NCBI GenBank assembly: GCA_022703765.1
Contig: JAKJHQ010000001.1
Span: 17,854 to 81,853 of the forward strand
DNA length: 64,000 bases
From: Candidatus Wallbacteria bacterium
GTDB taxonomy: Bacteria > Muiribacteriota > UBA9980
Direction: 5' to 3'
Under the pieces are notes generated by a model. That model saw only the letters and a list, made by a program, of their open reading frames with translations, did not search any database and had not been told where the DNA came from. Positions within the stretch are counted from its first letter, which is position 1. Each line of letters starts with the position of its first letter. Below are positions 1 through 9,281 of this stretch, piece by piece. The position numbers were made by a program, and so were the translations under genes.

Positions 1-2308
1 TAATAACCTTTTTTGCCTCGGCGCTTTCCGTATCGAAGTCATCAGGAAGATCTGAAATAAGCATCGATAAGGGAGGATAAAATTTAATGTCTTTTTTATT
101 TGGGAGCCATGGTTTTGATTTTAAAATTTTTAAAATTTCAGTTTCTTCTTTTGGATTTTTTGCCGTTGAGTAATAAAACGGATTTATGTTTCGCTTAAAA
201 GCATCGATTATAAATCTCCATAAAACGCAGGACTTAGAGATTGAAATGTTATCTAACAAATTATCAATACCTATAATAACAGGCTCTTTAAATATCGATT
301 TTTTATCGACCGGATTTGTTTTAAATCCAAGTTTATTTAATAAATCAATGTCATTGCTTTTAAAAATGTCCTCATATTCTTCAGATAAAAAGCAAATGTC
401 CGGATTTCCTTCAAAGAACTCTTCTAACATATCGTTACCAGAATACTTCAAAGGCAAAAACAATTCATCAGGCATAAAATAAGACAATTTTCCGGATAAT
501 TTATTCAAGCCGAGAAAGATCCTGGTTTCTTTAAGTTTTTGAATTAAAAGTTGTTTATTAGTAATATCTTTTCGAAAAATTTCAATTATTTTCTTTATAT
601 GGCATATGTTTTGGTCAACGGACGGCAAGACATCTGAATTGTATAAAGGCAAAATAAATTTAATTACTTCATCGATTTCATCAGGCTTTTTAATTCCGAT
701 AAGACTAAAGAAATCTTTCGTTAAATCACTTTCTGATATTCGCCTTTTAACCATCGAAAAATATGTATTGTTTTCATCAAATAAAAACACTTGAGGCCGT
801 TCATTTTCATCAAAAGGTTTAATATGGGAATCATTTTCAAGCCGGATAAATGGTTTATGCCTTAACAAGCCATCAGACGCGCAAGCGGCGGACTTTTTCT
901 GCCATAAAGAAATGCTTTTAGAAAGATAAAAATAAAAGTCAATAACCCATTCGTCGGATTGTTTTAATATAAAATCCATATCGAAAAGATCGGCGAATTT
1001 ATTGCCATCTATATTGTTTACTCGCAGTTTTTGCCTAAAATATAAAGCCAAATCTCTATATTTAAAAATATCCGGATGGATCATCCTGGCATTTATATTT
1101 TTAGTTAGTATATTTAAATTATTGTTTTGAGATAATAAATTTAATAATCTTGAGTTTTCAGCGTAATATGCGTTTTTATATTCGACATATCCCTCGTCAT
1201 CGTTTGGAATCAACTGTTCTTCTGACATAAGTTTTTCAAAAACTTTTTCATACGCGCTTCTAAATCTACTTTTTATAGGAAAATCAGATTCGTTGATAGG
1301 CAAAATATTTAAAAAATCCGGATTTAAAAAACCAAGTTTTTTGATTGATAAGATGCTATCGGATATCAATGTTGATATTTCACTGTTTAATTTTAAATTC
1401 CAAACATCGGCAGGCGGCACATTGTCTCTGGCTGGAGTTGTTTTATAGGGGCCTTGCACTAGAAATTTTAAACGCGTATCTATGTTAGTGGGAAAATAAA
1501 CTACAAGCTTTGAATCACTAATTTCTCTTATAGTTTCCGTTTTTGTTTTATCATCGAATTCAATTTTATAAGCAATTTCAACTTTCAAGTCAAGTTCATT
1601 ATTTTCTTCACTATTTACTTTTCTCTTAAAAACAAGCCATTTTTCGCCAATTTTTTTTGTAATATCCGAAACTATAACGATGCTGGACTGGTCATCGATA
1701 ATATTTACCTTCTTTTCGATTATACCTGCGGAACTTTGATTGATCCGCCATTCAAGTTTTTGAATATAATTTAAAAAAAGGATTGTCCTTACGTCGATTT
1801 CAATCAATTTCTTTTTAATTAAATCATATATTTCGTCTTTTGATCTTTTTTTATGCTCGAATTTGAAAACAAATTTTGTAATCTCCGAATTGTATTGAGT
1901 TTCGATAAGTTCAGGCAAAACTAAATTTTTTATATTAAAACTGTAGGTTTTGGAATAAATTTCTGGAGAATTTGTTATAGCATATACCGACTTAAAACCA
2001 ATTCCAAATTTGCCGATTTTATTGACGTCATCTTTTTTCGTGCTGTTACCGATGCTGGTAATCGAAGCGACGTCTTTAAACAAAAAACTAACACCGTCAT
2101 GAAAAAATTCAAGCCGGTCATCAAACAAAATAAAACTGACCGATTTAGCTTTTTGATCTTCCGCATTTTGAATTAATTCATAAATAAAATGAGAAGGATC
2201 GTCGTATAATCCGGAAAATATTTCTTCAAAATTGAAATTATTGTTAGGTCTTTTTAGAGCGTCAAGATATATTTTTCTATCATTAATCAGCTCATTAAAA
2301 TCATTCAT
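1..2308 (-). CDS. Large sacsin/MORC-like GHKL (Bergerat-fold) ATPase. The N-terminus lies in the window; the C-terminus runs past the window start, so more than 769 aa are present.
   Basis: An open minus-strand frame runs from ATG at 2306-2308 (GGAGG RBS at 2316-2320) to position 1 with no stop. The N-terminus carries Bergerat motifs: FIYELIQNAEDQKA (motif I, ExxxNxxD), HDGVSF (motif II) and GKFGIGFKSVY (motif III, GxxGxG). The six-frame track misses it because the stop lies outside the window. Confidence 0.6.
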   Translation of the reverse strand, partial: MNDFNELINDRKIYLDALKRPNNNFNFEEIFSGLYDDPSHFIYELIQNAEDQKAKSVSFILFDDRLEFFHDGVSFLFKDVASITSIGNSTKKDDVNKIGKFGIGFKSVYAITNSPEIYSKTYSFNIKNLVLPELIETQYNSEITKFVFKFEHKKRSKDEIYDLIKKKLIEIDVRTILFLNYIQKLEWRINQSSAGIIEKKVNIIDDQSSIVIVSDITKKIGEKWLVFKRKVNSEENNELDLKVEIAYKIEFDDKTKTETIREISDSKLVVYFPTNIDTRLKFLVQGPYKTTPARDNVPPADVWNLKLNSEISTLISDSILSIKKLGFLNPDFLNILPINESDFPIKSRFRSAYEKVFEKLMSEEQLIPNDDEGYVEYKNAYYAENSRLLNLLSQNNNLNILTKNINARMIHPDIFKYRDLALYFRQKLRVNNIDGNKFADLFDMDFILKQSDEWVIDFYFYLSKSISLWQKKSAACASDGLLRHKPFIRLENDSHIKPFDENERPQVFLFDENNTYFSMVKRRISESDLTKDFFSLIGIKKPDEIDEVIKFILPLYNSDVLPSVDQNICHIKKIIEIFRKDITNKQLLIQKLKETRIFLGLNKLSGKLSYFMPDELFLPLKYSGNDMLEEFFEGNPDICFLSEEYEDIFKSNDIDLLNKLGFKTNPVDKKSIFKEPVIIGIDNLLDNISISKSCVLWRFIIDAFKRNINPFYYSTAKNPKEETEILKILKSKPWLPNKKDIKFYPPLSMLISDLPDDFDTESAEAKKVI

Positions 2309-2363
2309 TAAAAACCTCCAAAACTTCTAATTTATAGTTAATTACATACGATGAACGGCGGTT

Positions 2364-3050
2364 TTATCTTCTAAACGGATTAATGTCATTGTTAGTGTGC
2401 AAAAAAACGTCGCCAATCGGTCTCACCTTTCTGTAATCTGTTTCATTATTATATCCTCCGAATCTGTTAACAAACATGCCATTTGAGAGCAAATACCACT
2501 TGTAACCGTGCTTCAACTTAGAAATTCCATGTTCTTTCATTAATTCAAGCAACGGTTTGACGCTATTGCTATTAAGATAATTATGTACAGTATTTAAAAC
2601 TTTTCTAATTTGAAGATCTGTTTCGTCAAATTGTTTTAAAAATTGGGATATTTCAACTTCTTCGCCTTCTATGACGTCTTCAATTTCACCATCTTCAACT
2701 TCGCCGTCTTCAATAAATTCATAGTCTAAATTTTTTCCTTCCCAAAAAGGTTGTATATCTCTGTTTGATCTTATAAATACATCGCCCAGTGAAGGAACTT
2801 GAGATACATGTCCCTGCTTTGAGCCATATCTGTTAACAAAATCGCCATTGACTTTTAAAAACCATTTTAAGGCGCCGTTTTCATTGTGATACAAGCAATC
2901 TACATTCATCTTCTCCATTAATTTAATAAGTTTGTGAACGCTTGTGCCTTTCAACTGACATGTGCTTCCGATCGGGACTAAAATTCCAAGATCAAGTAAT
3001 TTTTGAAATCCTATTTCGTGAAAAAATTCTATTGAATCGCGTTTATTCAT
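2364..3050 (-). CDS. Hypothetical protein made of two tandem copies of an unrecognised ~95-aa domain (W.L..G.FVNR[YF]GG ... GDVF...N.I[NQ]PF), joined by an acidic linker.
   Basis: ATG at 3050 with a GGGAGGG RBS. The halves are internally duplicated: KWFLKVNGDFVNRYGSKQGHVSQVPSLGDVFIRSNRDIQPF and KWYLLSNGMFVNRFGGYNNETDYRKVRPIGDVFLHTNNDINPF. The same domain opens the CDS at 6826..7941. Confidence 0.55.
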   Translation of the reverse strand: MNKRDSIEFFHEIGFQKLLDLGILVPIGSTCQLKGTSVHKLIKLMEKMNVDCLYHNENGALKWFLKVNGDFVNRYGSKQGHVSQVPSLGDVFIRSNRDIQPFWEGKNLDYEFIEDGEVEDGEIEDVIEGEEVEISQFLKQFDETDLQIRKVLNTVHNYLNSNSVKPLLELMKEHGISKLKHGYKWYLLSNGMFVNRFGGYNNETDYRKVRPIGDVFLHTNNDINPFRR

Positions 3051-3063
3051 TTCGTCCCTCCCT

Positions 3064-3405
3064 TTACATATTTATAATTTTCCATTGAGCGCTCTGACTG
3101 GGCCTGCCCTCTACATCTTTAACGCGACATTTAATTTTATGCAGGATGATTGGAAAAGTCGGCGTAGAACGACCCCTGGGCCATTTTCCGTTGCTTTCAG
3201 TATATGTCCCTTTTTCTTTATCAAAACAGTGGTCGCTTAACATTCTTCCTATATCAGCATTATATGAATCGCATACTGAAGTATCTTTATCTCTTAAATA
3301 TTGGCCTTTGATGGCAATTATAACGTCAATCGTATAAAATAAAGTCTTGCCTTCATCACGCCATTTTTTGATTAATTCTTCAATAAAAGTAACATGATCG
3401 AACAT
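3064..3405 (-). CDS. Small hypothetical protein of about 113 aa. The start was moved to an internal ATG that has a GAGGTG RBS.
   Basis: ORF 3064..3417. An ATG at 3403-3405 is preceded by GAGGTG. It sits 13 nt upstream of the next gene in the same orientation. No recognisable motif. Confidence 0.4.
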   Translation of the reverse strand: MFDHVTFIEELIKKWRDEGKTLFYTIDVIIAIKGQYLRDKDTSVCDSYNADIGRMLSDHCFDKEKGTYTESNGKWPRGRSTPTFPIILHKIKCRVKDVEGRPSQSAQWKIINM

Positions 3406-3504
3406 ATCGCACCTCACAATTCCGATTTTTATCTAATTTATTTACTCACATAACTAATAATTCTAACTTATTTTAAAATCAAAAAAATTATTAATTTTTT
3501 TAAT

Positions 3505-4803
3505 TTATAATGTTTCAATCTTCTTAAATTTCTCGATAATACTCTCGGTCACTGACTTTTCCGTTCTCGTTACAGCCTTCATTATATCGTCTTTAAGAAT
3601 GTGGTCACGCTCGATGTCATTCCGGTCGAAGGCGTCGAAGGCGGCTTCATCAACGATGTGCGCTATGTCTGCGCCGGAATAACCGTCAAGTGCGGCGGCT
3701 ATGTCTATCATTTCGGTTTCGCCGATCTGGCAGGCTTTGTCTTTAAGGTTGATTTTAAGGATTTTTAGGCGTTCTTCGGCGTTCGGCAGGCCTACATAAA
3801 ATTTCTTGTCGAAACGGCCGGGACGGAGGAAAGCTTTGTCGATTTTCTGCGGCTCGTTAGTGGCAGCTATAATGATTATCTGGCGGTCTTTTTCGTTGAA
3901 GAGCGTGCTTAATTGCGATAAAAGGACCGGCGTGATGCGCTCCATAACCGACGACGACTGGCCGTCGCGGGTCTTTAATATCCACTCGGCCTCATCCATG
4001 AATAGCACGGCGCGCGGCTGGCGTGCGATCTCGCTGAATAATTTTTCGAGGTTCTCCTCGGCCTCGCCGGGATAGCCTATTATGAATGAAGGGGTTATTT
4101 CGAAGAATTTCGCCTGTATCTCGCTGCTGATCGCGCGGGCAATAAGGGTCTTGCCCGTGCCGGGCGGACCGTAAAGGAGCATTCCGCCCCCGACGCGCAG
4201 TTTGAATTTGTCGGCGCGCTCAGGGTCCTTTGCGGGCGCGATGATGCGGCTTCGGATGAAGTTTTTGACCTGGTCGAGGCCGGCTACCTGATCGAGGTCG
4301 AAGCCGGCTTCTATTATCTGGCCGGGCAGGGCGGGCGGTTCGGCGTCGATCTCGAGGAATTCTTTGAGTTCGGGCGGCATGTCTTCGAGCGTGCCGTAGA
4401 ATAGTTTCAAGACTTTTTCGGTGATATCGGGGCCGTGAACCGGATATTGCGGGTATGAAAAGCATCCGAATTTCGCCAGTTTTAACTTGATTATTTTATC
4501 CAGGCGATCGAATGCGTTTTCTATGTATAAGATATTTGCGGTGACGGGGCGGACTTTGACATGAAGCGGATATTCGCCGCGGAACGCGCCCGGAACGAGA
4601 TTATAACCCGGCCGGTCTTCCGCCGCGAAAACGCCTATAAGATTTTGCCTTTCGGCATTATAAAGAAAGCCTATATGGCCTTTTTCAATGCTCTGCAGGT
4701 TGGCGTGATCGTATTTTACGCCGCCGAAGACGCCTTTTTCGATGCATTCGGCCTCCGTTTTGTTGTTGCAGATCCTGAAAAAGCACGGAACTTTTATCCT
4801 CAT
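3505..4803 (-). CDS. DCD-domain (PUA-like, EVE/YTH-related) protein fused to a classical AAA+ ATPase.
   Basis: The N-terminus has DCD motifs: FRICNNKTEAECIEKGVFGG, GFLYNAERQNLIGVFAA and PGAFRGEYPLHVKVRPV. The AAA module has Walker A GPPGTGKT, Walker B VLFMDEAE and second-region-of-homology ATNEPQKIDKAFLRPGRFD. The start was set at the second Met (AGGGGTGG RBS 5 nt upstream); the longest ORF begins at 4857. Confidence 0.75.
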   Translation of the reverse strand: MRIKVPCFFRICNNKTEAECIEKGVFGGVKYDHANLQSIEKGHIGFLYNAERQNLIGVFAAEDRPGYNLVPGAFRGEYPLHVKVRPVTANILYIENAFDRLDKIIKLKLAKFGCFSYPQYPVHGPDITEKVLKLFYGTLEDMPPELKEFLEIDAEPPALPGQIIEAGFDLDQVAGLDQVKNFIRSRIIAPAKDPERADKFKLRVGGGMLLYGPPGTGKTLIARAISSEIQAKFFEITPSFIIGYPGEAEENLEKLFSEIARQPRAVLFMDEAEWILKTRDGQSSSVMERITPVLLSQLSTLFNEKDRQIIIIAATNEPQKIDKAFLRPGRFDKKFYVGLPNAEERLKILKINLKDKACQIGETEMIDIAAALDGYSGADIAHIVDEAAFDAFDRNDIERDHILKDDIMKAVTRTEKSVTESIIEKFKKIETL

Positions 4804-4893
4804 AAAGACCACCCCTGTTAATGAATTAATTTTATCAATTATAAATTTATTTGTCAAATAATAGTTTAAGTAGATTTGATATTTTTTTATATG

Positions 4894-5283
4894 CTATCTG
4901 CCGTCTTCCTGACTTTCAATCCTCGCGATGCGTTTTCTTAATTCCATTAATAATTGGAACATGTTCATCTTCCGGAACAGCATTTCGCTTCTCATTTCGC
5001 TTAGCGCTCTTTCTCTTAGTTTCGCCTGCCGTCTTTCTTCTTTCTCAAGCTCAATCCGCTTCTGCTCTTCGTACTGACGTTTTAGCACGTCCAGTTTTTC
5101 TTTTTGCTTTGCCTGGATTTGCTGCCGGTATAACTTGACGTAAAGCGGTGCAAATCCAATTATAGGTCCAAGGATCGCGATATAGGGATTTTCTAAAGCA
5201 TAGTTGCCGCATATAAAGATGACGGCGATAATAAAAATCATCGATTTGACGTATACCCATATAAAATCAAACAGCGTTACCAT
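4894..5283 (-). CDS. Small membrane protein with two predicted TM helices and a charged coiled-coil C-terminus.
   Basis: GAGGAGGT RBS. Hydrophobic N-terminal segments IFIIAVIFICGNYAL and ILGPIIGFAPLYV, then a K/E/R-rich heptad region. Co-oriented within the cluster. Confidence 0.5.
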   Translation of the reverse strand: MVTLFDFIWVYVKSMIFIIAVIFICGNYALENPYIAILGPIIGFAPLYVKLYRQQIQAKQKEKLDVLKRQYEEQKRIELEKEERRQAKLRERALSEMRSEMLFRKMNMFQLLMELRKRIARIESQEDGR

Positions 5284-5378
5284 ATAAATACCTCCTCATC
5301 ATATTTGTAATAGCCGGAAATGGCAATAACATGAATACGAAAAGTTTGCGCTAATTCACTAAATTTGCCTTCATATGA

Positions 5379-6818
5379 TTAAATCGCTTCATCATCTGGT
5401 ATCTGTACATATTCGTTCCGTGACCTTTCGGCGAGGTCCGCCCGGCCGCATTTTTCGTAATATTCAATAGACAGACGGAAATGTTCTCGCGCGCCCCGCA
5501 TCGCGCCATAGGCGGCGAACTCGAGCCCGGCCGAATAGTGGAGCCGGCCCATGTAAAGCGCATTGGTAACGCCGCGCTCGCCGGCAGTTGCGATAGCACG
5601 GCAGTAAAGTTTTAGAGTAGTTTCATGATCGTCAAGCGCGTTTGAATACGCGTCGCAAATGCTCAATAAATCGCGCAGGGGCCTCACGTTATCATCGGAT
5701 ATCAGGCCCAGGTATAATTCGGCGGCGAGAGGCAGATAAGTTTCCGCCGCACCGGTTTCGCTAATGGCGATTGCGGCTTCGGCAATGCCTTTGTATGCAT
5801 CGGCAAGCAGAATGTCGCGGCCAGGCGAAGACGGCATATCCGCAAGCAGGCCGGACGCCGCGCTGAACGCTTCTAAGGCGCCGCGATAGTCGGTTACACA
5901 CATAAGTGAAGAGCCGCCGGTGTTTTCGATAGAAGCGAATACCTCGGGATCGTTAATGCCGCACTCTATCGTATGGCGCTTCAGATCGGCGTTATAAGAG
6001 ATCGCCATGCCGTACCAGCCCAGCTCGGCGCAGGCAAGAAAAGCGAGCTCATAGGCTTCGCGAAGATCGGCATATGGAAAAGAAACCGCCGAAAAGGGTT
6101 TTGGCGGAATATTGCCCGAATGCTCCACCGCCGCATAGCCGTGCTTTTCAATTAAGCCCTCATAAACGGATATCGCGCTGTTTAACTGGCGGAACGCTTC
6201 TTCATATCTGTCGGCCTCCAACAAATAACGGCCGTAGCAGCAATAATAATCGGCGACGGCCGGATCGTTGAGACCGCGCGCCTTCAATATCTCGATCAGC
6301 GCAAGACGCATGTCTTCGCACGCGCCGGCATATTCTTTAAGGGCGCAATGCGCGGCCGCGCGCTTTTTTAATATCATATATTTTTGAACGCTTTCGCTAC
6401 TATCCAGGTCGGACGCCGCGCCGGCTGCGTCACGCCACATTTCTGAGTCGTCGAGGGCCTTTAACGCTTCTTCGAAGCTCCCGTTCTCAATATGGATATA
6501 TGCCGCCGAGTAAAATGCGGTAGCAATGCCGGCTTTGTCCACCGCGCCGCCGCGCACGAAAGTTATGAGCGCCGATTCTATTAATTTAAGCGCCTGCTCG
6601 AAACGGCCGGCGTCATACTCACGCCAGGCTTCTTCGAGCAGCGCACGCGCTCGGTCGGCGCTCGAGCCGGCAAATTCGTCAATACGCGAGGCTGCAAGAG
6701 CAGAAAGTTCACTTATCGAAGGGACCGGTTCATCGGCGGGATCGTTTTGAGCGGCGCCCTCTCCGTGAGGGGTCTGAAAATATTCATCGAGCCTGTCTAA
6801 AAATTCTGAATCGCCCAT
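5379..6818 (-). CDS. TPR-repeat protein.
   Basis: Repeated helical motifs with A/L/Y/G spacing typical of TPR, for example FEQALKLIESAL, YEEAFRQLNSAISVYEGL and ALYMGRLHYSAGLEF. GC-rich gene, 7 nt downstream of the preceding gene. Confidence 0.65.
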   Translation of the reverse strand: MGDSEFLDRLDEYFQTPHGEGAAQNDPADEPVPSISELSALAASRIDEFAGSSADRARALLEEAWREYDAGRFEQALKLIESALITFVRGGAVDKAGIATAFYSAAYIHIENGSFEEALKALDDSEMWRDAAGAASDLDSSESVQKYMILKKRAAAHCALKEYAGACEDMRLALIEILKARGLNDPAVADYYCCYGRYLLEADRYEEAFRQLNSAISVYEGLIEKHGYAAVEHSGNIPPKPFSAVSFPYADLREAYELAFLACAELGWYGMAISYNADLKRHTIECGINDPEVFASIENTGGSSLMCVTDYRGALEAFSAASGLLADMPSSPGRDILLADAYKGIAEAAIAISETGAAETYLPLAAELYLGLISDDNVRPLRDLLSICDAYSNALDDHETTLKLYCRAIATAGERGVTNALYMGRLHYSAGLEFAAYGAMRGAREHFRLSIEYYEKCGRADLAERSRNEYVQIPDDEAI

Positions 6819-6825
6819 AATAACT

Positions 6826-7941
6826 TCACCTTCTTCCGCCCGCGGGCTTTCTTTTTAAATAAGCCTCCAGCGTGACCGCAAGCTGCGGGTTAGCGCAGGC
6901 GACCTTCAGCATCTCATAAAAATAATCGCCTTCGAGCTCCCGGTAGGCGTCAAGTATATCTTTCCAGCCGATAAGCCTTACCCGCGAAGGATTGCAGCCC
7001 GCCGGACGCAATCCTTCTTCATAGTCAGGCGCGCTTCCCTCGCCGCGGGGGGCGCCGGTTAATTCGGCCAGCAATCCGGCTTCAAATTCAGCCGTAGGAG
7101 AAAGAATAAGGCCGACATGCGCAAAGTTTTCGGGCGGCATGGCGTTGCGCTCCATGATAGTATTTATAACAGGCATCTGCCTGCGCATCTGGGCGGCGAG
7201 ATCGGACGCCGTCACGTAGTCGTACATCTTCGCCTCGACCACCACCAGGAATTTTTCGCCGCACGCCGCGCGCAGCAATATAACGATATCCGGCGTGTCG
7301 CGCTTTATATGCCATACTTCCCGCCAATCCAGGGCGGATTCTTTGAGCGAATATTCGGTGTAGAAACATATTTCAGAATTCGAATATTCAGTTTTGATAA
7401 ATTTATCCGGAACGCCGGCCATTTTAAGAAAAATATGCAGACGGCTGAAACGGCCGCCGCAGACTATATTCGGAAATACGCATGAAGTCCAGTAGCGTTC
7501 TTTCCTGTTAAGCGGCAGCGAGTTTATCATATCGTTCATTTCACCGGCGCGCTCGAGATCGGTTGCGCGAAAGGCGCGGGCTGCAGAGCCCGGGAGTTCG
7601 GGGCGCCCGGACGGGTTCAAGCCGCCAGGTTTCTTGCAGTAAAAGGGATTAATGCGCCTGTTGGCCCCTCTAAATACCTCACCCATAGAAGAAACCGATG
7701 TTAGCTTAACCGGTTCGTCATGGCCGCCATAACGGTTTACGAAAACGCCGCCGGACTCCAGCGACCAGTCTTCGCCGAATTCCAGCCCGGAAACGCCTTT
7801 CTGCTCCATAAAAGCCATAAGCGGCGCAACGCTCGCGCCAGTAAGAATAAGCTTTTCACCGTTGATTATCCCGAGCTTCATAAGCTTGCATAGCCCCGCA
7901 GACTCCAAAAATACGGTAATGTTTTCAACAACGCCTTGCAT
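6826..7941 (-). CDS. Fusion of the unrecognised ~95-aa domain (N-terminus) to a PD-(D/E)xK nuclease-fold domain (C-terminus).
   Basis: AAAGGGGTGA RBS. The N-terminal copy is DWSLESGGVFVNRYGGHDEPVKLTSVSSMGEVFRGANRRINPF. The C-terminal half has a textbook motif, TPDIVILLRAACGEKFLVVVEAKMYD (PD ... ExK), with an upstream acidic EICFYTEYS. Confidence 0.6.
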   Translation of the reverse strand: MQGVVENITVFLESAGLCKLMKLGIINGEKLILTGASVAPLMAFMEQKGVSGLEFGEDWSLESGGVFVNRYGGHDEPVKLTSVSSMGEVFRGANRRINPFYCKKPGGLNPSGRPELPGSAARAFRATDLERAGEMNDMINSLPLNRKERYWTSCVFPNIVCGGRFSRLHIFLKMAGVPDKFIKTEYSNSEICFYTEYSLKESALDWREVWHIKRDTPDIVILLRAACGEKFLVVVEAKMYDYVTASDLAAQMRRQMPVINTIMERNAMPPENFAHVGLILSPTAEFEAGLLAELTGAPRGEGSAPDYEEGLRPAGCNPSRVRLIGWKDILDAYRELEGDYFYEMLKVACANPQLAVTLEAYLKRKPAGGRR

Positions 7942-7973
7942 ATTATCACCCCTTTTTAAATTATAAAATAAGA

Positions 7974-8080
7974 CTCATTTTTATTTCATGCGGGCAGGTA
8001 TTAGTGAATAGTGTACAGTGAATAGTGAATAATGAATAGTTAAGGTTGGGGATCGCCCTGCGAGCTTTATATATAAAATA
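7974..8080 (+). repeat. Intergenic repeat family, head module (H), copy 1.
   Basis: tcatttcatgcgggcagg, then tandem agtgaatag-like units, then the ggggatcgccctgcgagc hairpin, then tttatatataaaatat. About 85% identical to 32538-32640. Inverted copies lie at 37420-37523 and 43291-43355. Confidence 0.8.
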
Positions 8081-8288
8081 TAAAAATATTCTACCTACTT
8101 TTAATTTTAGCAAAATATTATAAAAAAGTCAATAATATTCAAAAATATTTTTACCCTTTTTTAAATATTATTACCCCCTTCTGTTTTAAGTTGATTTATC
8201 AATGCATTCCTTTATACCCAAAAGCTCCCACATCAGGCGGCATAATTAAAACGCTTACCATAAAACCATAATTTCAATTTACTGAACG

Positions 8289-8606
8289 CCATAATTGCTG
8301 CGCAGACGCGAGCGAAGCGCGCGTCTGCAAAATAAAAAAACAGAGATGAGCGGAGTAGATTTGAGAAAAAGAAATAATAAATTAGAGCAGAGTAAAGTTG
8401 AGTAGAAATTTTATAGAAAAAGAGAGAAGAGAGAAAGAAAGGCTAAATAAAGTAAAACAAAAAAAAGAGAAAAGCAAACCGAATTAAAGCCGCGTCAGAA
8501 AAGCAGTCGCCGCAAGGCAATAAAGCGTCAGGCAGTTTAGGGGTTGGAAGGGATTTTAAGGGAAGGAAGGGGCCATCGGCACCTTGCCTTCCCTTATCAA
8601 AAAACA
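8289..8606 (+). repeat. Composite structured element, copy 1. It has a perfect 9-bp-stem hairpin, a purine-rich tract of about 180 nt and a long imperfect palindrome.
   Basis: ccataattgctgcgcagacgcgagcgaagcgcgcgtctgcaaaa at 8289-8332. An A/G-rich tract at 8333-8520. aaagcgtcaggc...aggggttggaagggattttaagggaaggaaggggccatcggcaccttgccttcccttatcaaaaaa at 8522-8606. The same modules occur in the same order at 23590-23820. Confidence 0.75.
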
Positions 8607-8633
8607 GGATATTTAAATGGAATAATCGGGGTT

Positions 8634-9281
8634 TTATTTTTCCAGCCATTCGGTCAGTATGGATTTGATATTATTTACGGCCCTGCGTTTTTCGGGGCTG
8701 CTTTTGCCTATATACTGCGTATCCAGAAGGAATTGAAAGGTTTTCACGGCCAGTTCGTCGGATATTTGGGTTTGTCTGCCCGAAGAAAATCCGGAGGCGG
8801 TTTCTTCGCCGGCCTCTACGGAGCGTTCCGCGGAGTCGGCCTGCGGAGCCGGGGCCGCATGGGTTTCGGCTGTTTTAAGAAGTTCGGTCACGCCTTCGCG
8901 GTCGCCTTTTTCGATCGGGCTTTCATCCACAATATGAAGCGCTTCGGCGGCGTCGATTTCGTTGAACATGACCGATTTAAAAAGTTTGGACTGTTCGCTG
9001 GAAAATTCGGCCCATTTCCTGTCATGGTAAAGAAATCTTGAAAATACGCCTATTTCGAGCGGCGATATGACGGCCGCGTCGGCGCCCGCTTCTTTGATGA
9101 GAAGCATATATATCTTGCTGTTATCGATATCGGTTATGAATATGCGTTTATTCCAGCGTGCGAATTTATTGTTGAAGAAATCCGCGGCGTCGAATATGTC
9201 TTTCGACCGTTTGCGGAAGTCGGCGTTCAGGCCCTTTTCTGAAGGCGTCTTGAGCGCCACTATTACTTTGAAAATTTTCAT
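8634..9281 (-). CDS. Hypothetical protein.
   Basis: 215-aa ORF with an AAGGCGG RBS and mixed, non-repetitive composition. The overlapping plus-strand ORF (8544..9041) is G/F-rich, consistent with an antisense artefact. Confidence 0.5.
   Translation of the reverse strand: MKIFKVIVALKTPSEKGLNADFRKRSKDIFDAADFFNNKFARWNKRIFITDIDNSKIYMLLIKEAGADAAVISPLEIGVFSRFLYHDRKWAEFSSEQSKLFKSVMFNEIDAAEALHIVDESPIEKGDREGVTELLKTAETHAAPAPQADSAERSVEAGEETASGFSSGRQTQISDELAVKTFQFLLDTQYIGKSSPEKRRAVNNIKSILTEWLEK

Follow-up and report, generated by a model that had tools for sequence, protein, structure and literature searches.

The question raised by this locus, which lies within 64 kb of DNA of Candidatus Wallbacteria (contig JAKJHQ010000001.1; the whole stretch is referred to below as the window), is what a segment of about 100 amino acids (aa), found three times in the products of two genes, contributes to the proteins that carry it. 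The first of these genes (2364..3050, minus strand) encodes a protein of 228 aa with two copies of the segment (protein A). The second, located 3.6 kb away (6826..7941, minus strand), encodes a protein of 371 aa, in which one copy is followed by a C-terminal core (protein B). Our analysis revealed that the segment represents a real domain family, which appears undescribed.

The two copies in protein A, designated A1 (residues 2-105; 2736..3047, minus strand) and A2 (residues 131-228; 2367..2660, minus strand), were delimited by BLASTP, MAFFT and a family hidden Markov model (HMM; i-E-values 6e-27 and 1.4e-30, respectively), and the copy in protein B, designated B1 (residues 1-104; 7630..7941, minus strand), by BLASTP comparison with the A copies and by the same model (E 1.8e-28). 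The envelopes of the HMM cover residues ~2-105 and ~131-226 of A and ~6-103 of B, and an acidic linker of ~25 aa separates A1 from A2. The first-pass annotation of this DNA, made from the sequence alone, had reported a three-copy repeat with a shared pattern in these two reading frames, and formal alignment bears this out. In pairwise BLASTP comparisons, A1 and A2 share 39% identity over 72 aa (E 3e-14), A1 and B1 39% over 97 aa (E 6e-17), and A2 and B1 37% over 93 aa (E 2e-21), i.e. the likeness among the three copies is far above chance. Their MAFFT alignment contains 24 invariant columns, including the motifs FVNR..G, G.VF and N..I.PF. The copies are located where the annotation had placed them, but A1 begins near residue 2 instead of residue 20, and the "helical segment" described as preceding the pattern lies inside the same fold. 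When the 64-kb window was translated in six frames and scanned with every HMMER filter disabled, no fourth copy appeared (the next best match had E=1.2).

Neither A nor B matched any family of Pfam-A, NCBIfam, PHROGs or PADLOC at E<=1, except for sub-threshold noise (MMM1, 0.014; YaaA, 0.066), and no match to A, B or a 106-sequence profile of the domain was found among PDB sequences. The best PDB match of this profile, phage Tad3 (E 0.38), was not significant and was not recovered structurally. The earlier statement that the segment is assignable to no known family thus stands against four HMM libraries and the PDB sequences. There are no on-record Pfam matches over the repeat in A, B, P0041 and P0186 (P numbers denote proteins and L numbers loci of our collection), and P0039 has matches only to ankyrin repeats. 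The public copies of A and B, which originate from bacterium ADurb.Bin243 / Candidatus Wallbacteria (OQA79404.1, OQA79399.1), are all named "hypothetical protein". Relatives were obtained only by exhaustive HMMER searching: a profile of the three copies, compared with 1.84 billion representative proteins, recovered 192 of them at E<=1e-3 and 94 at E<=1e-10, while word-indexed homologue searches with domain alignments gave 0 and 4 proteins. These relatives, together with a confident structural model of B1, substantiate the initial suspicion of a new domain family. One member, P0040 (L076, 2611-5961), an McrB-like protein of 1116 aa with three copies of the domain, has an on-record Pfam match to PF28530 (DUF8426), a model not included in the Pfam release that was scanned, lying either over its N-terminal 259 aa or over the domain copies; the other strong members of the family carry no such on-record match, and nothing relevant was found in the literature on DUF8426.

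The AlphaFold2 model of residues 1-104 of B, based on the 106-sequence alignment, has a mean predicted local distance difference test score (pLDDT) of 95.3 and a predicted template modelling score (pTM) of 0.87. In the predicted fold, strand beta1 and helices alpha1 and alpha2 lead to a short strand and to alpha3, after which come four beta strands and a pair of short helices. No structural match to this model was found in PDB or BFVD, and the domain does not correspond, in fold and topology or in HMM comparisons, to the PUA-like readers (EVE/DCD/YTH) or to the winged-helix Mrr_N. Among the 160 sequences whose architecture was analysed, ~62 (roughly 40%) are stand-alone proteins of ~100 aa, some of them encoded on long contigs (e.g. 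L078, L036, L030, L006). In ~70 sequences the domain forms the N-terminus of a longer protein, in ~20 it is internal or C-terminal, and nine contain two or three tandem copies. Since the B segment alone is modelled with such confidence and so many members stand alone, the domain is predicted to be an alpha/beta unit of ~100 residues that folds independently.

The column profile of the domain shows near-invariance of F11, L33, S37, L41, M45, W59, N69, F90, N94, N98 and P99, as well as aromatic residues at positions 100/101. Conserved acidic residues (Asp, Glu) are absent from it, as are conserved His, Cys, Lys and Arg. Because the invariant positions are hydrophobic, aromatic, Asn or Pro, without a catalytic signature, the domain looks non-catalytic. 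An interpretation of its QNxxINPYY motif as a clamp-binding PIP-box was rejected, as its residues deviate by one position from the required spacing and are placed within the folded core.

The proteins to which the domain is fused were identified by clustering the non-domain parts and scanning representatives of the clusters. The largest class of partners is a NucS_C-like nuclease (17 representative clusters; Pfam NucS_C, E 7e-9 in P0053), and the other nuclease-type partners are the core found in B and HNH. The remaining ones comprise (i) FRG (PADLOC PDC-S15), (ii) Mrr_N with TIR, (iii) SIR2 (ThsA/LmuA-like), (iv) Schlafen AlbA_2, (v) a KAP nucleoside triphosphatase (NTPase), (vi) Pkinase with FGE-sulfatase, (vii) a type I methylase with a specificity-subunit-like region and HATPase_c, and (viii) ankyrin repeats. 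The first-pass annotation had asked whether homologues are always associated with PD-(D/E)xK nucleases, a tie that dissolves in this survey, with HNH, TIR, SIR2, ATPases, GTPases, a kinase and a methylase among the partners. In P0114, an extra N-terminal domain and the studied domain precede a complete Septu PtuA protein (model positions 2-476 of 479, E 4e-99), and in P0072 the domain is joined to Menshen NsnA (model positions 31-381 of 385, E 3e-113). The attached defence proteins are therefore complete without the domain, which makes it an add-on. P0135 consists of EVE (E 7e-10), the domain and a part without assignment, and in AAA_5 GTPases with McrB-type motifs (read by eye) the domain occupies the position of the DNA-binding domain of McrB. 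In B, its homologues and A, the domain is followed by linkers of low complexity or acidic character. The kinase fusion, P0102, in which the domain precedes a Ser/Thr kinase and FGE-sulfatase, is encoded by the last gene in an array of five paralogous kinase genes (L077, 1-12532), whose products vary both at the N-terminus (Zn-ribbon or domain) and at the C-terminus (leucine-rich repeats or FGE-sulfatase).

It is, on balance, probable that the domain is a portable, non-catalytic recognition or recruitment accessory module of prokaryotic defence and restriction-type proteins. This reading is drawn from the autonomous fold, the lack of catalytic residues, the flexible tether, the self-sufficiency of the partners and the existence of tandem, effector-less forms paired with a SACS-NOV_C gene (see below). 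A sensing or partner-recognition function had also been mentioned in the first-pass annotation; a non-catalytic role of this kind does fit the fusion partners, while the role itself is one that we infer. According to the proposed mechanism, the domain would hang on a flexible linker, usually at the N-terminus, attached to an effector or NTPase that is complete by itself. A putative pocket or surface, to which W59, N69, F90, N94, N98, P99 and the aromatic residues 100/101 would contribute, might bind one conserved cue, and its binding would deliver or license whichever effector is attached.

As to the nature of the cue, our best guess, which we put forward tentatively, is that it lies in nucleic acid, for example in a base that has been modified, flipped out or damaged; a protein partner is the next candidate. 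Nucleic acid is favoured because most of the partners act on DNA, because McrB-type proteins carry the domain in place of a DNA-binding domain, and because it keeps company with EVE (P0135), with Mrr_N and, in the window and in L072, with a DCD-AAA protein. Several observations weigh against recognition of this kind. The net charge of the domain is approximately neutral (median +1, pI 7.9) and none of its conserved residues is basic, which is weak for a DNA binder. Another reader-like domain adjoins it in P0135, P0167 and, by eye, P0114, so the domain may be a connector and not the reader. The fusions with kinase, STAND-like/KAP, TIR and SIR2 would suit an adaptor or a protein sensor equally well, and the Dehalococcoidia genes in which the domain precedes a NucS_C-like nuclease are situated among housekeeping genes, not in defence islands.

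The set of partners may also be viewed in another way. The PD-(D/E)xK, HNH, TIR and SIR2 effectors, and a membrane protein encoded nearby, resemble the effectors of signal-activated systems, and the invariant Asn and aromatic residues would suit a nucleotide pocket. The domain could then be a sensor of a small-molecule or nucleotide signal (cf. SAVED, CARF, SLOG, STING), whose ligand would activate or oligomerise the effector, while the role of stand-alone and tandem forms would be to buffer this signal or pass it on. We consider this improbable. Neither the modules of the window nor the ~65 examined loci contain a cyclase, a TIR signal generator or another signal-producing enzyme, which makes such a sensor less likely, and many carriers are solitary genes among housekeeping genes. 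Furthermore, flexible linkers speak against tight allosteric coupling, and fusion to whole multi-domain NTPases (PtuA, NsnA, McrB-like) would be atypical of a sensor.

The recognition module that we favour can be considered further in the context of the two window genes. The first-pass annotation had treated them as parts of a single cluster forming one system. Comparison with other loci divides this cluster into two separable modules, because B homologues occur elsewhere without A (a B homologue with a tetratricopeptide repeat (TPR) gene and without A in L001 and L068) and A-like genes without B (an A-like gene with a SACS gene and without B in L071 and L072). An attempt to define one transcription unit failed, as the promoter/terminator scan did not exceed shuffled sequences (20 vs 13.5 +/- 3.7) and was uninformative.

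The module of protein A (module ii), as delimited by conservation of gene order, would extend over 4803..<1, i.e. past the start of the window, and comprise genes for a DCD-AAA protein, a 113-aa protein, protein A, a SACS-NOV_C protein and a superfamily 1 (SF1) helicase. The conserved partner of A is the SACS-NOV_C gene located downstream, which runs off the window edge: an open frame from ATG 2308 (1..2308, minus strand; Pfam SACS, E 2.7e-18) encodes the N-terminal 769 aa of a 1056-aa protein with a sacsin-like GHKL ATPase and NOV_C (DUF3883). The complete gene order is supplied by the NCBI contig L073, 99.9% identical to positions 1-8295 of the window, in which the genes for B (371 aa), a TPR protein (479 aa), a membrane protein (129 aa), DCD-AAA (432 aa), the 113-aa protein, A (228 aa) and SACS-NOV_C (1056 aa) are followed by that for an MkoA-like SF1 helicase. 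The product of the full-length SACS gene of this contig (5988-9158) matches PADLOC TmtA (E 4.8e-78; model positions 30-654 of 1302), as well as Pfam SACS (E 8e-18) and NOV_C (E 3.6e-7).

The DCD-AAA protein (432 aa; 3505..4803, minus strand) is an IetA/CDC48-like AAA+ ATPase (Pfam Dev_Cell_Death, E 3.7e-13; Pfam AAA, E 1.3e-33; PADLOC IetA-like, E 4.5e-30) whose N-terminal DCD is an EVE-like modified-base reader domain. Its true start is probably ATG 4803, given by the gene call in L073, and not TTG 4857 of the mechanical open reading frame (ORF). The 113-aa protein, encoded directly upstream of A (3064..3405, minus strand) and called as a gene in L073, L074 and L075, has no match in Pfam, NCBIfam, PHROGs, PADLOC or PDB. 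A sharp break in composition was observed at ~3420-3505, between the 113-aa, A and SACS genes (G+C content 0.30-0.34) and the DCD-AAA gene and B module (0.42-0.55), with an AT-rich spacer of 87 bp following the DCD-AAA stop codon; the break at ~3500 falls inside module ii.

Similar gene sets were found at two other metagenomic loci, neither of which contains a B-like gene or a second gene with the domain. In L072, a gene with three copies of the domain is followed by a 97-aa ORF and then by genes for SACS-NOV_C, an SF1 helicase, a protein of 230 aa and DCD-AAA (48% identical to that of the window), and in L071 a protein with ankyrin repeats and three domain copies precedes a SACS protein 48% identical to that of the window. 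The closest relatives of A1 are the three copies of P0039, likewise encoded upstream of a SACS gene. The recurrence of the repeat protein, small ORF, SACS-NOV_C, helicase and DCD-AAA in L072, and of the repeat protein with SACS in L071, suggests a conserved multigene Tiamat-like system using a tandem-domain protein. Within it, the two-copy A, which has no effector of its own, would serve the GHKL-ATPase/nuclease and the helicase encoded downstream as a subunit for bivalent recognition. A search of the literature on accessory genes of Tiamat returned nothing relevant.

The module of protein B (module i) appears to occupy 9281..4894 and to consist of genes for a 215-aa protein, B, a TPR protein and a small membrane protein. 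The first gene (8634..9281, minus strand) encodes a product that shares 62-67% identity with the 225/240-aa proteins encoded ahead of the B homologues of L001 and L004, and that has no family match in Pfam, NCBIfam, PHROGs or PADLOC. Between it and B there is an AT-rich gap of ~690 bp (7942-8633; G+C content 0.31), which contains the best minus-strand promoter-like sites. The TPR protein (479 aa; 5379..6818, minus strand; Pfam TPR_12, E 1.9e-8) is 35-53% identical to the products of TPR genes after the B homologues in L001 and L068, and the small membrane protein (129 aa; 4894..5283, minus strand) is 29% identical (E 1.5e-10) to that of a 98-aa gene between B and TPR in L068; its matches to KwaA and S_4TM are weak and sub-threshold. 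The three loci with B homologues (L001, L004, L068) all lack A, SACS and DCD-AAA. A gene whose product (373-420 aa) weakly resembles the NTPase domain of DNA_pol3_alpha recurs at these loci with B and TPR (L001, 15697-16818; L004, 15502-16623; L068, 3745-5007), and one for a VIT-VWA protein is also present in L001 and L004; these may be variable downstream components of B modules, absent from the window.

The C-terminal core of B (6826..7554, minus strand), which follows a linker of ~25 aa, contains the motifs LPLNRKERYWT, TEYSLKES, TPDIVIL and VEAKMY. A search of 5.8 billion clusters revealed 37 homologues, and in 21 aligned cores LPLNRKERY, TEYSLKES, TPD and ExK are common to all, with E63, E68, P84, D85, E103 and K105 (core numbering) invariant, in a manner that fits the PD-(D/E)xK pattern. 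The core has no match in Pfam, PADLOC or PDB. The fusion to a PD-(D/E)xK nuclease reported in the first-pass annotation is thus upheld as far as the conserved E..PD..ExK motif is concerned, and receives no backing from profile matches; at the level of motifs, the core is a putative PD-(D/E)xK-like nuclease, which the domain would target. Homology with the NucS_C-like nucleases was rejected, since hhalign aligned only the D..ExK strands (E 0.1, not significant). Distant homologues of B (P0016-P0037) lack the N-terminal domain. In 13 of the distant homologues, a motif search detected 15 C-terminal modules of ~85 aa, one or two in each (MGRxGGLxGxxLxxDIxxGxWRxxxYEV...NxNWF), for which a scan of some members against Pfam was negative, and which may represent a further new domain; a relationship with the domain studied here was not supported (hhalign, E 0.21).

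The location of A and B so close together leads to the main alternative, namely that the domain is a homotypic coupling adaptor acting by the logic of effector-associated domains (EADs) or Death-like domains. Copies would bind each other, and A would scaffold or gate effectors such as B, thereby coupling both modules. That two carriers should lie 3.6 kb apart is in its favour, given that only ~192 of 1.84e9 representative proteins contain the domain. The domain shares with EADs (PMC7159879) a small size, a non-enzymatic nature and a terminal position on a flexible tether, and it is found on NTPase cores (PtuA, McrB-like, KAP) as well as on effectors (nucleases, TIR, SIR2). Proteins with two or three tandem copies exist. 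A second adjacent pair of domain genes occurs in L090 (156-1347, minus strand), where a domain-only gene is followed by one whose product combines the domain with a region of low complexity and, at the C-terminus, a Zn-ribbon. Pairs in the same genome were also noted in OZ242009.1 and in OY759972.1 (Chloroflexota); in the latter, a protein with two copies (L060) and a fusion of the domain to a nuclease (L058) are encoded at separate loci. However, the window and L090 are the only two of ~65 examined loci with two domain genes together, and a single one is present at L001, L004, L068, L069, L071, L072, L076, L077, L078 and 37 genome loci. As described above, B homologues and A-like genes also occur without each other. 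Although A2 and B1 are fairly close (they rank 4th and 16th for each other, B1 being 4th for A2), A1, A2 and B1 are not mutual nearest relatives, unlike the adjacent EAD copies of PMC7159879, and the closest relatives of B1 are its orthologues, followed by P0051 and P0046. No Pfam model of an EAD matches the domain. Finally, three Asn, a Trp and a Phe are near-invariant across distant lineages, which is unusual for co-evolving homotypic surfaces; since these polar residues are so strongly invariant, a fixed ligand fits better. Homotypic coupling is, in our opinion, unlikely. Its extended version, in which a new fold forms a Death-domain-like coupling network, A wires a Tiamat-like GHKL-ATPase/helicase to a nuclease-TPR system and stand-alone and tandem copies recruit domain-tagged effectors (nucleases, TIR, SIR2, PtuA, McrB-like) throughout the genome, we regard as still less likely. 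If the copies did bind each other, this would be one of the rare instances in which neighbouring defence systems are in physical cross-talk, here by way of a common docking domain.

The genomic distribution of the family bears on one more explanation. Carriers were sampled with a degenerate DNA pattern for [VI]F..QN..INP[YFH][YF] (62 genome loci retrieved, 37 of them true) and a gapped DNA pattern (20 metagenome loci retrieved, 18 true), and such pattern searches bias the sample. The main carriers are Dehalococcoidia and other Chloroflexota, with scattered occurrences in Bradymonadales, Cloacimonadota, Binatia, Desulfoluna and Mesorhizobium; Paenibacillus ihuae encodes a domain-PtuA-type protein and Vulcanibacillus modesticaldus DSM 14931 a stand-alone copy (L036). 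A phage or plasmid origin was not supported, as tblastn searches with A against phage and plasmid collections were empty and two IMG/VR pattern scans contained no true copy. About half of the true genome and metagenome loci (~28 of ~55) encode the domain with a NucS_C-like nuclease. In Dehalococcoidia this gene (~245 aa) is syntenic, being located between thrS and a gene for a DUF255 thioredoxin, or near recG, relA/spoT and hisS, and in Dehalococcoidia/Chloroflexota (L014, L029, L032, L055, L065, L028, L078) it looks vertically inherited rather than island-borne. A stand-alone copy is placed between riboflavin genes and prfA (L078).

These housekeeping surroundings, and the fact that the combination with NucS_C-like is the commonest architecture, are in agreement with an accessory role in DNA repair, in which the domain would replace the N-terminal domain of NucS/EndoMS, as a dimerisation and DNA-binding surrogate, in a NucS_C-type nuclease of Chloroflexota, and the fusions to defence proteins would have been captured secondarily. 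The residues by which EndoMS holds flipped bases (Tyr, Asn and Trp) resemble the invariant set of the domain. On the other hand, no similarity of the predicted fold to that of NucS_N, or to any other structure solved so far, was found, most of its other architectures match defence proteins, the context of the window is a defence island, and synteny within one class may mean mere vertical inheritance. As an account of the whole family, such an origin has a low probability; the Chloroflexota subfamily may have a NucS-like function in housekeeping.

Promiscuous accessory domains are the means by which defence systems gain triggers and partners, and SAVED, CARF, EADs and EVE each opened systems to study. 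The domain described here tags at least 15 types of effectors or NTPases, including those of Septu, Menshen, Tiamat-like and McrBC-like systems. Its definition would improve the annotation of a few hundred "hypothetical" proteins and offer a handle on the accessory subunits of Tiamat-like systems. It is a small, tractable protein, with carriers in the cultured P. ihuae and V. modesticaldus, and its ligand could reveal a shared infection cue.

Of the systems described so far, four invite comparison. The first are the effector-associated domains (EAD1-11) and bDLD of NTP-dependent bacterial conflict systems (Kaur, Burroughs, Iyer and Aravind 2020, PMC7159879), some of which are also mixed alpha+beta. 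The domain shares with them its small size, non-enzymatic nature, terminal position, association with NTPase cores and varied effectors, and occasional presence in two genes of one locus. It differs in that it matches no Pfam EAD model, in that paired copies are exceptional (2 of ~65 loci) and adjacent copies are not each other's closest relatives, and in its core systems, which are Septu, Menshen, McrB-like and Tiamat-like, whereas those of EADs are vWA-MoxR or GAP1 ternary systems.

The specificity (reader) domains at the N-termini of type IV restriction enzymes and their relatives, i.e. McrB-N, EVE/DCD/YTH, SRA and Mrr_N (Bell, Wolf and Koonin 2020, PMC7641849), are placed in the same position as the domain, which has comparable partners (McrB-like GTPase, PD-(D/E)xK, HNH, GmrSD/DUF262-type and methylase) and co-occurs with EVE, DCD and Mrr_N. 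With NucS/EndoMS the family has in common its most frequent architecture, the domain followed by a NucS_C-type nuclease; it is unrelated to NucS_N in sequence and predicted structure, and the core of B is not detectably NucS_C.

The fourth is Tiamat, described as a single gene, tmtA (bioRxiv 10.1101/2024.10.26.620412). The gene downstream of A resembles it in its match to the TmtA model and in carrying SACS/GHKL and NOV_C. In contrast to Tiamat, the product of this gene is 1056 aa long (vs model lengths of 1302-1782), aligns only to approximately the first half of the model, and is encoded within a conserved multigene set in the window and in L072, while in L071 only the repeat protein and SACS are found. 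What appears to be new, in comparison with all these systems, is an unannotated domain with a confidently predicted fold without a solved counterpart, which is carried by known kinds of defence proteins.

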